NCBI RefSeq assembly: GCF_006345805.1
Contig: NC_043002.1
Coordinates: forward strand, 56,048,001 to 56,112,000
Direction: 5' to 3'
DNA: 64,000 nt
Origin: Octopus sinensis
Lineage: Eukaryota
Every line of letters begins with the position of its first letter. The stretch's first letter is position 1. The translations under genes and the position numbers were made by a program. This document shows positions 40,736 to 52,550 of this stretch, piece after piece. The notes beneath the pieces are model-generated. The model made no database searches, had not been told where the DNA came from, and was given only the letters and a program-made list of their open reading frames with translations.

Positions 40736-40796
40736 AAGATAAATCAAGTTATGGCGAAGGCTTGAAAGTAGCCTATATATATATATATATATATAT

Positions 40797-40831
<35 letters not shown>

Positions 40832-40840
40832 TAAATATAC

Positions 40841-41040
40841 CTGTGATAATCAGCAACACAATATATTTTGTTTTCAACATCAATTGTAAACGGTACACCA
40901 TCTAAACATTCATTACACTGACAACAGCGGAAACAACCAGGATGGTAAGCTTTACCCATTGCTTGTAAGATCATATCCATGATCAAATGACCACAAACAC
41001 AGCATTTATCAGCAGTTTGTTGAAAACCAGAATAAAGGTA
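40841..41040 (-). CDS. Exon-like segment of an Ajuba/LIMD1/WTIP-family LIM-domain protein (end of LIM1 plus all of LIM2)
   Basis: Translates [66 protein letters not shown](R). It has the LIM Cx2C...Hx2Cx2Cx2C...Cx2D pattern and is nearly identical to WTIP/LIMD1 LIM2 as I recall it. Followed by AG|GTATAT (possible donor at 40840). No AG acceptor at the 5' end. No other exons recognised in the window. Confidence 0.92.
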
Positions 41041-42337
41041 ATATATATATATATATAATTAATTACAACCGTTATTAAGCTAGTTAGCAGTCTGATGTTA
41101 GCAAGCAATTAAATCACTAATTGAATTGGTGCCTATTCAACAGATCCACCCCACCATCACTCCCACCACCTCTACATAGACTTTGGAATGGATAGTTTGA
41201 AGAAGAAGAGCAAATAATGTTCCTTCATTGTATTCTTTTAGGTTTATCACACAAAAACAAAAATGAATTAAAAAGGAAATCTATGGAAAACAAATATTAA
41301 ATAAAAAACTTTTTTTAAACAAATCCTGTTATAAAACAAAAAGACTAATTAAAGGATAAAAAACAACAACTAATTAGCTAAATAAATAATAATCAGTTAT
41401 GTAGTTTGGGGGGTGGGGTTCTGTGTGTTTGCAGACTGGGTGTATGGAGGAGAGCACCATATTGAAAAGATTGACTGGTATTAATTTTAGACAAGAGATA
41501 AAAAACAAAACAATAAAACACAGACATCACACACACACACACACACACACTTCATTATACACACACCCACACTTAATGGTGTAACACACATACACACATG
41601 CTTACACACATTCCCATTATACCTCTTATACCCCCTCCACACACACACACACACACACACACAACTCTCCTGTGTTAAGTAGTTCCTACAACAATCTTTT
41701 CAAAATTAATCTTTGAAAACATTTCACTTTTTTTTTTTTTAACTCTTGCTTTTTCTTGTTTTTCTTTGTATAATTTTTTTTATAATTTACATCCTGTTTC
41801 TCTTCTATTGTCATCATCATCAGCATTATTAGTAGTGAGGTGGTGGTGCTGGTGGCGACAGTGGTGGTGGCGGATGGCGTATTTTCCAACAGTTGTGTGT
41901 GTCACAAACAAGAAATGCTTAAATTGTCAACAATAAAATTCTAAATTGCATGTTATGAACCCAATTATATTTACTTTTTCAACTCAATTCCACTTTTAAC
42001 TCGGTTCTAAACTATTTCTAGAATGGTCCTTCATTGCTTGGCAGTTGTTGCTGCTAAACATTTGTTTTCATATTTATTAATGTTCTGTTGTTGTTCTTTT
42101 TATAAATGGTCAGAAATTGAAAATAGAAACAGTTAAACTTTGATGAAAATAACAAAAGTGCCAGGCATGGGCTGTGTGGTGAAGAGCTTGCTTCCAAACC
42201 ACATGGTTTCACGTTCAATCTCTCTGTGTGGCACCTTGGGCAAGCATCTACTATAACCCAAAGCCAAAAAAGCCTTGTGAACAGATGCATGGTAGACAAA
42301 AGCTGAAAAGAAGCCCATTATGTACACACACATACAT

Positions 42338-49300: not shown

Positions 49301-49963
49301 TGTGTGTGTGTGTGTGTGTGCATGCACCTGCTTGACAACACGCTTGAACCCCACTGTGCTTGCCAACCGGTGCTGGTGTGCTTATGTCTGTAACTTAGTG
49401 CTTTGACAAAAGGAGACTAACAGAATAGGTACCAGGCTTTGATCATTTAACATTCAAACCAACTGAATCCAGCCAAAATATTCTGTTTTATGTTCAACCT
49501 AAAACTAAGCAATCACATCATTAAAATCTCAAAGCTACGAGATATCGCATGAAGAATTGATCAGAATGTGAATAAATAAGTATTACATTTGACAGAATAA
49601 TCTGAATGCTAAGGGGTTTTAAAAAATAAATACTGATACTGGGGTTGATTCATCCAACGAAATTTCTTCAAAGCGCTGCCCCAGGCCTGGCCACAGTCTA
49701 AGGACTCAAACAAGTAAAAGATAAAAGATCTTCAAAGAGCATTTTCTGGTTCCAACAACTTATTTAAATTTCATAAATTATGTCTTTTTAATTCCAATAT
49801 CAAACGGCGCCATCATTTAGCGTCTATTTTCCCTGCTGGCATGGGTTAGACAGTTTGACTGGAAATGGTAAGCCAGAGAGTTGTACCAAGCTCCAGTCTG
49901 GTTTGGCATGGGTTTTATGGCTGGATGCCCCCCTTTCTGACGCCAACCACTCCAAGAGTGAAG

Positions 49964-50333
49964 TGGGCATCTTTTACGAGTCACCGGCATAAGTGCTTTT
50001 ATGAGTTATCAGCAAGGGTGCTTTTACAAGTCACCAGCATGGGTGCTTTTAAGAGTCACCGACACATGGGTGCTTTTACGAGTCACCGGCACACGGGTAC
50101 TTTTTCGAGTCACCAGCACACAAGTGCTTTTACGAGTCACCGGCACGCGGGTGCTTTTACGAGTCACCGGCACACGGGTGCTTTTACATGTCACTGGCAC
50201 ACGGATGCTTTTACGAGTCACCGGCATGGGTGCGTTTACGAGTCACTGGCACACGGGTGCTTTTACGAGTCACCAGCATGGGTGCTTTTATGAGTCACCA
50301 GCATGGGTGCTTTTACGAGTCACCAGCATGGGT
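49964..50333. repeat. Minisatellite, ~14 copies of GGGTGCTTTTACGAGTCACC(G/A)GCA(CA)Y (25/27 bp)
   Basis: Directly visible tandem units. The unit resembles the GGGTGCTTTTTACGTGCCACC motif in the other RTE-tail repeats of this window. Confidence 0.95.
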
Positions 50334-50334
50334 T

Positions 50335-50529
50335 AAATGGGCTGATTCCTGAAAGTACTGCAAGACCAGGCAAACTTGTGGAAAAGGCAGAGCAAGCTCC
50401 TAACTCTTCACCTTGTTCTAAAAATCAGTTTAATATCGATGCCCATCACCCAAATAGGGACCATATCAGATATTAAGCTGATAAGAACAGACACTACCAT
50501 TTGATCTTAGCCAAAAGGCAGCAGCTGTT
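50335..50529 (-). pseudogene. U2: Near full-length U2 snRNA retrocopy/pseudogene
   Basis: Minus strand reads GCCTTTTGGCTAAGATCAAATGGTAGTGTCTGTTCTTATCAGCTTAATATCTGATATG...GATTTTTAGAAC...TAGGAGCTTGCTCTG...CCTGGTCTTGCAGTACTTTCAGG, matching U2 stem I, IIa, Sm site and stems III/IV. The branch-point pairing motif is mutated (GTAGTG instead of GTAGTA) and the first ~10 nt are decayed. Confidence 0.93.
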
Positions 50530-52550
50530 AAATTTTTAATTCCAAAATGGCAGAATGACCAGCACAGACAAAATGCTTAGCATTTCTTCTAGCTTTTTAT
50601 GTTTTGAATTCAAATTCCACTGAGGTCAACTTAACCTTTCACCTTTTCAGGGTCAATAAAATAAAGTACCAACTGAGCACTGGGGTCAATGTAACTGACT
50701 TGTTCTCTCTGCCTAATGTTGGTGCCCTTATACCAAAATGTAAAACTGTTAATTTTTTTTAACCACTTCCACCGTTTTAGCTTAAAAAAAAAAAAAACTT
50801 TCATAAGTTCAAAGTTTCTGTTTTTATTATTTTTCAAAAATTTACAGCTCTTTCAAACATAAATTTTCATGATCATTTACTGTCCTCGTTCCCTGCAGGC
50901 ATGGGCTTCGCAGTCCTTTGGCTTGTCAGCTCCTTTCAAACCATGCCAGCAGGGAACAAGGTCATTAAACAATAACAAACTATTCTTGAAAGATCTCTGT
51001 AATTTTTTTTTTTTTTTTTTTTTTTTTGGTATTTCAAAAGAATTTTAGTTTCCCTCCAAATTTATGCAATAAAATGTCTCTCAACCAATAAGTAAGCTAT
51101 CTCTTTCTCCTTCACCCATGACACACACACAAAAAAAAACATCAGATATCTCACACAAAATAACCTACCTGTGCCCATTATGTTTACTTGAAAATGCTTG
51201 ATATTTTAATTTAAGGTAAAGAAATAAATGACCTTGGTGTAAATTTATGCTTGGCTTTTATATAACCCTTCCCTGTTGTTAGACAAGATTATCGCTGTTC
51301 ACTTGCCAGTCAAGCAACATACAAATGAAACTAGCTTTCAGCACTTTTACTATGCTCTAATTCCTTTCAACACAGGAATGCATACTACCACATTTCATTT
51401 TCTCATTTCCTTTCTATTTATTATTATCATGATGTTAAGTCCTCTAACTGGTGACATTTAAATAACTGCGCAAAAAGTGGTCCTTTCAAAATATCCTGAC
51501 ATTTCTCCTCTTTCATAACAAAAGAACAGCAATTCTAAGCTAGTCAAAGAAAGAGACTAGGGAATTACAACAAATCTAAACTAGTCAATGATACAGACCT
51601 AGAAATTCTATTTTTCAGAGCATTTCTCACATAAACTTATATTTTCTAAGATTTCCCATTTTCTTACTGTTGTGATAAGTTCAGTTGAGAGTGTGAGTGC
51701 TGACTGAGAAAACTTTTTTTATATATGTTGTAATATCCAAGACTACTTTATATGATCTATCTTTTTAGCCCTAATGTAGTATTATGTGATTTGAGGGAGA
51801 TTTGGCTGCTATATCTAACAGCCTCAGGCCATATTAGTAGTAGCTTTTGACAGGTGTTCAGTATTAACTTGTAAGGTAAGCTCATTTCCTCTTTACTTAG
51901 AAGCTTCGATCTCTTGGCAGAAGAATAGAGATAAGTAGACATTCACAACGGCTAATGAGCCAAAAACCAGTCTTTCCATAATGTCCACAGCTTCACACAG
52001 TATTTAGCACATACGCCTCCTCCTTACATTGTGGATTCCATAGGCAGAAACTGAAAGAAACCTGCCGTATAAGTGTGTTCATCCTTCCCCACTAAAAACA
52101 TTCTTTAAAGTGATGCCCCAGCATGGCCACAGTCAAATGACTGAAACAAGTAAAAGCTAAGTCATACAATATGCTTTAGGGTTGGGTTAGGGTTAATAAG
52201 AATTTTAAACAGTTTTAGAGGAGCAAAATTAACCGATGCCCTTTCAGTACAGAAAACAGAGAGCAGTAATGATTGTTATACAAACTATGTGGAAATAGGC
52301 ACAGGAGTGGCTGTGTGATAAGTAGCTTGCTGCACAACCACATGGTTCCGGGTTCAGTCCCACTGTGTGGCACCTTGGCCAAGTGTCTTCTACTACAGCC
52401 TCAGACCCACCAAAGCTTTGTGAGTGGATTTAGTAGACGGAAACTGGAAGAAGCCCATTGTGTACGTACGTACGTACGTACGTACATACATACATACATA
52501 CATACATACATACATACATACATACATACATACATACATACATACATACA

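Follow-up and report, generated by a model that had tools for sequence, protein, structure and literature searches.

Chimeras of U6 snRNA with L2, RTEX and SINE sequences are known from platypus and lizard, together with doubtful RTE cases in opossum (PMC4476161). In the available portions of that study the partners are L2 and Mon-1 in platypus, L1, L2, RTEX-2 and AnolisSINE2 in Anolis and RTE_Mdo in opossum (Doucet et al. 2015, PMC4476161), and its conclusion is that stringent LINEs form chimeras only. Excerpts of other studies show that L1 chimeras, including those with 5' transductions, have been catalogued (PMC11838501), that the R2 reverse transcriptase (RT) requires non-templated addition for template jumping in vitro (PMC8857657), and that SINEU elements are distinguished from sums of chimeras (PMC4494074). 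The choice between template jumping and prior RNA ligation as the origin of snRNA/LINE chimeras is settled only for human U6/L1.

For an octopus, the classes 'U' and 'U-L1' are listed without description in a repeat annotation (PMC13282606). Within the text available, the words snRNA and chimer- are absent from that paper and its supplement and from PMC11203168, and snRNA is absent from PMC9115989. Here we analysed a window, the whole stretch of 64,000 nucleotides from Octopus sinensis (contig C6, 56,048,001-56,112,000), that carries a U2 snRNA copy joined to an RTE-type LINE end. The original prediction, made from the letters alone, supposed that such a chimera had not been described for RTE in molluscs. 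The supposition holds in so far as we found no report of U2-RTE chimeras or of mollusc snRNA chimeras, in a search whose coverage stopped short of subscription journals and Repbase reports; it is too broad in that U6 snRNA-RTE chimeras are in print for lizard (PMC4476161, from the part of the text available).

The window element and its parent LINE

As originally predicted, a near full-length U2 runs into about 14 repeat units and then into an RTE-type tail, all three sharing the minus strand, and a single direct repeat identical at 15 of 16 positions brackets the whole unit. An snRNA therefore stands 5' of, and co-oriented with, a 5'-truncated LINE 3' end, with one target-site duplication around both. 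The Rfam model RF00004 matches at 50332-50531 with 111.9 bits over model positions 1-192; between positions 12 and 189 it shares 87% identity with gene-like copies, the first ~11 nt of the copy have been altered, and it does not belong to the 31 copies whose upstream flank is gene-like. The minisatellite scan returned 13.7 copies of period 27 at 49971-50328, with a spacing of 25/27. The 16-mer of the duplication has no further match at up to one mismatch on either strand of 1.86 Mb of sampled loci, a count that leaves out 12 loci covering the window copy and the second copy described below. The predicted decayed (GAT)n end was right as to its ~1.5 intact units (49811-49818), and beyond them it is barely recognisable, the next 10 bases fitting poorly. 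On folding, the tail end of the window element was no better than shuffled sequences (z -0.23).

Features of the window element (positions within the 64,000-nucleotide window)
Feature	Position	Strand	Basis
5' copy of target-site duplication	50533..50548	.	direct-repeat family D9 and rarity test
U2 snRNA retrocopy to U2 position 189, without downstream gene flank	50337..50529	-	Rfam and alignment to gene copies
Linker of 3-4 nt between U2 3' end and first repeat unit, likely non-templated	50333..50336	-	sequence reading; similar short linkers in other chimeras
Minisatellite, 14 units of 25/27 bp, belonging to the 3' UTR of the parent RTE-type LINE subfamily	49971..50332	-	
RTE-type LINE 3' tail of ~160 bp with about 1.5 GAT units at its end	49811..49970	-	
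10 bases separating tail from duplication; decayed repeat or unrelated filler	49801..49810	-	sequence reading
3' copy of target-site duplication	49785..49800	.	
5' flank, carried in pieces in the second copy (L102, contig C4)	50937..51433	-	none found elsewhere in the genome

The U2/minisatellite junction is bridged by contigs of two other organism labels, contig X7 of organism C (49851-50440, 4 differences) and contig X3 of organism B (50150-50423, 0 differences), which indicates that the junction is real, common to close relatives and not an assembly artefact. One further contig, from a run guessed to be RNA but perhaps DNA, spans 50405-50626. An empty orthologous site was not seen among the 15 joints listed out of 161 in the runs of organisms B and C, where the filled junction is present. 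A U2-targeting insertion of the Utopia type was discarded, the window U2 being uninterrupted and without gene flanks. Taken alone, the window element is a dead retrocopy of some age that gives no hint of a function.

The element shares the minus strand with a LIM-domain exon 8.7 kb further 3', at 40747-41058. A Pfam search (best 150 of 206 candidates scored) found no upstream LIM exon, and neither did tblastn and motif scans covering 314 kb, 250 kb of them beyond the window; a LIM-gene intron is only a putative setting for the window element.

The window tail resembles about 20 other places within the window, and a first look at the LINE tail gave 7,082 candidates in the 2.72-Gb genome. Relatives of the tail that lack U2 carry 0-20 minisatellite units (28 scorable of 29), and C-terminal remnants of the LINE ORF lie 75-530 nt upstream of the tail in 11 of the 28 closer copies. 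The minisatellite is thus ordinary 3' UTR of U2-free LINE copies and does not mark the switch. The earlier suggestion that it may record slippage of the RT is therefore not supported; the unit number also differs between the window (14) and the second copy (5).

In five longer natural copies (L300-L304), a related tail (71-78%) comes after Exo_endo_phos, RVT_1 and PHD frames. The RVT_1 matches have E values of 2e-24 to 3e-32, and the Exo_endo_phos match (E 1e-4) is below the Pfam cut-off. The endonuclease and RT frames of L300 and L302 are interrupted by stops and frameshifts. Ends in (GAT)n are visible in L300, L302 and L304, with no poly(A), and the ~0.8-0.9 kb shared upstream in this set contains no sense frame of at least 150 aa that could correspond to an ORF1. 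Among 78 homologues, 6 are named 'craniofacial development protein', a label which we take to mark RTE-type endonucleases. By this predicted architecture (APE endonuclease and RT, no ORF1, tandem-repeat 3' end) the parent LINE is provisionally assigned as an abundant RTE-type element.

Recurrent snRNA chimeras and the position of their junctions

The U2 3'-end pattern has 111 matches genome-wide. The 100 of these that were listed, plus loci from other searches, gave 96 distinct 3' ends after identical gene copies were merged. Setting aside as gene-like the 31 copies with gene-like upstream flank and two others (L081 and L129) left 63 dispersed copies. A sense retroelement starts within 45 nt of U2 in 39 of the 63, and an antisense one in none; removal by eye of L038, L087 and L094 left 36 chimeras, comprising 8 RTE ends, 16 CR1-type tails of ~55 nt and 12 SINE heads. 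The 8 U2+RTE loci have 7 different junctions, the variable outcome that the original prediction had associated with recurrent chimeras.

The U6 pattern has 336 matches genome-wide, and all 52 non-array copies on contigs C1 and C2 were taken for the census. Partners are in sense orientation in 45 of the 52 and antisense in 1, the 45 being composed of 24 SINE heads, 19 CR1-type tails and 2 RTE 3' UTRs; the partner library was cut from the same loci, and two U6 calls (L221 and L257) are self-matches only. Position controls showed a partner in 4/65 and 6/65 cases for U2 and in 4/52 and 4/52 for U6. For U1, no retroelement partner was seen by eye in 5 dispersed copies taken from 12 lower-scoring matches listed. 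A young LINE that has an RVT_1 frame, and that by its motifs presumably belongs to the CR1 group, carries one variant of the short CR1-type tail as its 3' UTR. These data reveal that snRNA-retroelement fusions recur across the genome with both U2 and U6 and with partners of three or more kinds (RTE tails, CR1-type tails and whole tRNA-type SINEs), almost exclusively in sense orientation and at varying junctions.

Duplications of at least 11 nt surround 12 of 44 other chimeras, against 9% in shuffled pairs, and are mostly simple repeats; complex, non-microsatellite duplications occur in 4 of the 44, against 3.7% in shuffled pairs. The scan reached 400 nt downstream, and the window's own repeat is beyond that range. 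Since the duplications of these chimeras are mostly short or microsatellite, their co-integration rests on orientation and adjacency. The 16-mer duplication of the window is unusual for this set.

These counts also bear on a history of two insertions, in which the 16-bp duplication came from an RTE fragment, U2 entering afterwards at its 5' border with a 7-bp duplication of its own. An exact 7-mer does flank U2 alone, just inside the 5' duplication and right after the U2 3' end, where it takes in the two final bases of U2, a feature also of tailless retrocopies. However, many of the 44 chimeras have one-mismatch inner matches of 7-8 nt (9 nt is reached in 1 of them), which places the inner duplication within chance; the 7-mer is imperfect in the second copy, and two separate events leave unexplained why sense partners outnumber antisense ones by 39 to 0. 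We regard this history as improbable. The original proposal of one RTE-type integration event that switched onto U2 RNA gains support from the one long outer repeat and from a parent LINE with APE endonuclease and RT.

The partners mostly begin at the 5' end of a SINE or just before the terminal stem-loop of a LINE, after short linkers. In 27 chimeras U2 or U6 abuts one SINE family at its 5' end or close to it. All 35 junctions with CR1-type tails are located 7-25 nt from the stem motif, and 84 of 97 CR1-type tails free of U2 and U6 run on into the upstream body. The young LINE starts at the stem-proximal site in 6 of 6 chimeras and in 8 of 30 free copies (p=0.0015), indicating that this site is a natural break point favoured by chimeras. 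Intermediate junctions were seen only twice, in L160 and L162, both outside the census. Folding predicted two hairpins in the CR1-type tail (z -2.6); the tail of L035 folded no better than shuffles (z -0.96). Among RTE ends, junctions ~50 nt from the end were found in 5 of 7 U2 chimeras; of 69 free tails taken from 314 kb of contiguous DNA, 6 were this short (p=0.0005). With a second sample of free tails and U6 included, the short class amounted to 5/9 versus 11/49, which is not significant (p=0.097). The window junction is one of the longer exceptions, as it falls in the minisatellite and not at the stem-loop. Since most partners start at such template ends after short linkers, end-to-end template jumping appears to be favoured.

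RNA ligation of the RtcB type, by which U2 would have been joined to broken RTE RNA before the fusion was retrotransposed in one step, would yield the identical anatomy, and a cleavage that leaves a 5'-OH could account for the fixed break in front of the stem-loop. U2 normally ends in a 3'-OH, and Pol III SINE RNAs begin with a triphosphate. RtcB ligation has been demonstrated for human U6/L1, in a study whose available text states that RtcB needs a 2',3'-cyclic phosphate and a 5'-OH and is blocked by a 5'-triphosphate (PMC6789731). Going by the end chemistry generally held for these RNAs, such requirements suit U6 but not U2 or intact SINE RNA. Nevertheless, 36 of the 63 dispersed U2 copies are chimeric, 27 chimeras use the SINE 5' end, and extra bases are frequent at U2 junctions, all of which argues against ligation, and we consider it an unlikely origin of the window element. 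The genome supplies many natural events (336 U6 and 111 U2 3'-end matches) with substrates, U2 3' ends and intact SINE 5' ends, that should not suit RtcB; the clustering of junctions at two template ends makes the question directly testable and points to a probable break immediately upstream of the LINE terminal stem-loop.

A second copy on contig C4

A genome-wide search with the U2/minisatellite junction pattern, allowing up to 3 mismatches, gave two exact matches, the window and L102 (contig C4, 100.846 Mb). The other 59 matches all have 3 mismatches and, on a reading that did not cover U2 in each, most look like the RTE tail. A search with the junction DNA (best 40 of 183 candidates scored) also returned only the window and L102. 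The two loci share ~500 bp of single-copy 5' flank that is absent elsewhere in the genome. Their U2 parts have 9 changes in common relative to the genes, 4 of them present in no other copy, and their tails share one change lacking in 41 other tails; each copy has 10-18 private changes per part. This combination of shared and private changes indicates a duplication soon after insertion. The window copy is likely to be the source of L102, both halves of the target-site duplication being present in the window.

An amplified U2-headed SINE family moved by RTE, the other possibility raised in the original prediction, is hard to reconcile with these data. A second locus does have the identical junction and the same altered U2 5' end, and Table 1 of an octopus repeat annotation contains small automatic SINE classes 'U' and 'U-L1' (PMC13282606, seen in part). 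However, the junction has only its two exact matches, and L102 shares the 5' flank with the window: neither many copies with a uniform head-tail junction nor copies at unrelated sites with their own duplications, as in SINEU, were found. The other six U2+RTE loci each have a different junction, and the tail is common to thousands of LINE copies, which is Kojima's sign of independent chimeras (PMC4494074, in the portion available). By the distinction drawn there the window case is on the chimera side, and membership in a SINE family is largely refuted and very improbable.

As to how L102 arose, we incline towards a re-mobilisation with 5' transduction, in which a later transcript of the window copy took in the upstream flank and was recopied through the RTE tail to C4. 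The competing account, a DNA-level duplication or repair of ~1 kb with no renewed retrotransposition, comes close to even chances and concerns L102 only. It is supported by the several deletions of L102 relative to the window, by the fact that no duplication is visible around the C4 unit, and by the LIM scans, in which no upstream exon that would place the window element in a transcribed intron appeared in 250 kb beyond the window. Against it, homology between the two loci stops precisely at the (GAT)n tail, the longer of the two tails being that of L102, and comparison of the window 3' flank with the next 19 kb of C4 gave a score of 25, within the background of 22-27, that is, no homology; the element is also on the same strand as the LIM exon. 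A long segmental duplication was rejected: two seemingly collinear matches ~10 kb upstream look like pieces of one interspersed repeat, contiguous on C4 and split in the window, and there is no 3' flank homology.

Mechanism and comparison with known systems

We consider the window element to be a one-off chimeric retrocopy, probably made when an RTE-type RT copied the end of its own RNA and then jumped onto U2 snRNA. Target-primed reverse transcription would start at the tail repeats in the nicked target, and the RT would copy the last ~520 bases of its own RNA. It may then run off the 5' end of the template, be it a true SINE RNA 5' end or a LINE RNA ending just before the terminal stem-loop, possibly adding a few untemplated bases. 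Continuation on the 3' end of an snRNA, here U2, would leave one 16-bp duplication. Among the points against this account, no empty site was seen, most other chimeras lack a long non-microsatellite duplication, an exact 7-mer flanks U2 alone, the RTE contrast lost significance in the second sample of free tails, and the window element has its junction in the minisatellite and a tail end that folds no better than shuffles.

A broader reading is that RTE and CR1-group RTs routinely run off discrete RNA ends (a SINE 5' end or a protected stem-loop fragment of ~55-65 nt from the LINE tail) and jump onto U2 or U6, producing hundreds of snRNA-headed chimeras, and that the window element was re-mobilised via its RTE tail together with the 5' flank. 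As a whole this reading is tentative, with the balance somewhat against it. If it is true, the window element would represent the stalled beginnings of an snRNA-headed SINE in an invertebrate. Chimeras of this sort are raw material for small-RNA-headed SINEs, and most never amplify. The window element is a genuine U2-RTE chimera, probably from a single event, that belongs to a known kind and is not a new SINE; new to present knowledge are the scale of the phenomenon, U2 as a partner, junctions that cluster at two ends and a possible daughter copy.

The comparisons that follow draw on the accessible parts of the papers cited. The closest likeness is with the vertebrate U6 chimeras, where the snRNA likewise precedes a short LINE end or a SINE in the same orientation, with short duplications (PMC4476161). 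In platypus chimeras dominate the U6 copies to a similar degree (40/47, against 45/52 here). That screen covered U6, whereas U2 is a frequent partner here and the host is an invertebrate; in the same comparison, human snRNA copies with repeats number 30/256, against 36/63 for our dispersed U2. Many snRNA parts here, unlike those of the vertebrate chimeras, are near full length, and the junctions cluster at two template ends (PMC4476161). Human U6/L1 chimeras likewise combine a full-length snRNA with a 5'-truncated LINE in sense orientation within one duplication, but they have an L1 poly(A) and RtcB ligation for U6, whereas here RTE- and CR1-type tails are joined to both U2 and U6 with linkers at the junctions (PMC6789731, PMC11838501).

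Small-RNA heads are shared with crocodilian SINEU, to whose 5' ends U1 and U2 were repeatedly added by template jump (PMC4494074), and with platypus snoRTE/PlatSINE1, the snoRTE tail being RTE-derived (PMC7245038); SINEU and snoRTE are amplified uniform families, in contrast to the window junction, which exists as two copies sharing a flank. Utopia also places U2 sequence next to a non-LTR element, but it inserts at a specific site in U2 genes, while the window U2 is whole, lacks gene flanks and is 5' of a LINE 3' end (PMC4640811). Finally, end-to-end jumping by the R2 RT, which yields continuous cDNA across separate templates with non-templated bases, corresponds to the mechanism proposed here; it was observed in vitro with the R2 enzyme, whereas the jumping proposed for RTE and CR1 RTs is read from genomic sequence (PMC8857657).

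Extended transcripts in snRNA retrocopies

Analysis of the snRNA copies indicates that 3'-extended precursors were also retrocopied, since about 25-30 nt of the gene flank is retained and the copies share an end point. In several of these precursor-type copies the end point falls within (TTA)n/(TAA)n tracts, and they were possibly primed by a microsatellite-targeting LINE. In the chimeras, in which an snRNA copy runs into a co-oriented retroelement, the joined U2 position ranges from about 187 to 205, from which we conclude that U2 took part in its mature as well as in its extended form.

The 5' U2 fragment of L080 ends exactly at position 38, where it is fused to unrelated sequence, and a second U2 piece lies about 350 bp downstream; the fragment may represent a tailless retrocopy, or else a remnant left by a U2-targeting element. 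At L253 a U6 copy continues directly into the 5' part of another U6, a possible U6-U6 jump, and L186 and L187 form a tandem pair of one U6+SINE chimera spaced 326 bp apart.

We also observed a young LINE (L311-L340) with a 3' UTR of about 75 nt; many copies of this LINE lie within (TA)n. Its 33-nt tail motif has 1,254 exact copies, and one LINE copy, L331, retains an open RT frame of 491 codons.

Surroundings of the window element

An inverted pair of RTE-tail-like ends sits just upstream of the window element, the 5' duplication of which is touched by a SINE. The window also holds a LIM-domain exon, presumably Ajuba/WTIP-like; the remaining exons of this gene were not located, and no upstream exon was found by a Pfam search of the best 150 of 206 candidates or by tblastn and motif scans over 314 kb.

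Features of the window and of the genome (C, contig and L, single locus of genome G000)
Feature	Position or loci	Strand	Remarks
U2 unit, ~1.7 kb	L020, L021, L014, L025, L022, L016; about 290-2010	U2 orientation	
U2 unit, partial	L006, L008, L009, L010, L012, L017, L024		
Precursor-type U2 retrocopies	L079, L084, L103, L109, L112, L113, L114, L117, L087		
Precursor-type U1 retrocopies	L283, L287		
Hairpin at U2 gene 3' end	L005:1677-1695		7 bp; directly beyond Rfam stem; folding z -2.5
5' U2 fragment	L080:508-545		
U6 followed by U6	L253, C1:188.87 Mb		
U6+SINE pair	L186/L187, C6:53.578 Mb		
RTE-tail-like inverted pair	window 50876-50969		36-nt spacer; 29-nt arms, 86% complementary
SINE	window, about 50549-50745	opposite to element	
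LIM-domain exon	window 40747-41058	-	Pfam PF00412, E 4e-10
U2 tandem gene cluster	C3:19.697-19.737 Mb		
U6 tandem gene cluster	C1:141.92-141.96 Mb		
U1 tandem gene cluster	C15:28.98-29.18 Mb		

U2 genes within a dispersed unit

Outside the retrocopies, a complete U2 gene with both its upstream and downstream flanks is carried within a unit of about 1.7 kb, which is shared at 92-94% identity among five further loci at separate sites on C1, C5, C6 and C1269. The ends of the unit are sharp and common to its copies; at its start lies a repeat that has a subterminal palindrome, and a second copy of that repeat usually follows the unit. It looks as if U2 genes were captured and dispersed by a Helitron-type element, the type that we take this unit to resemble.
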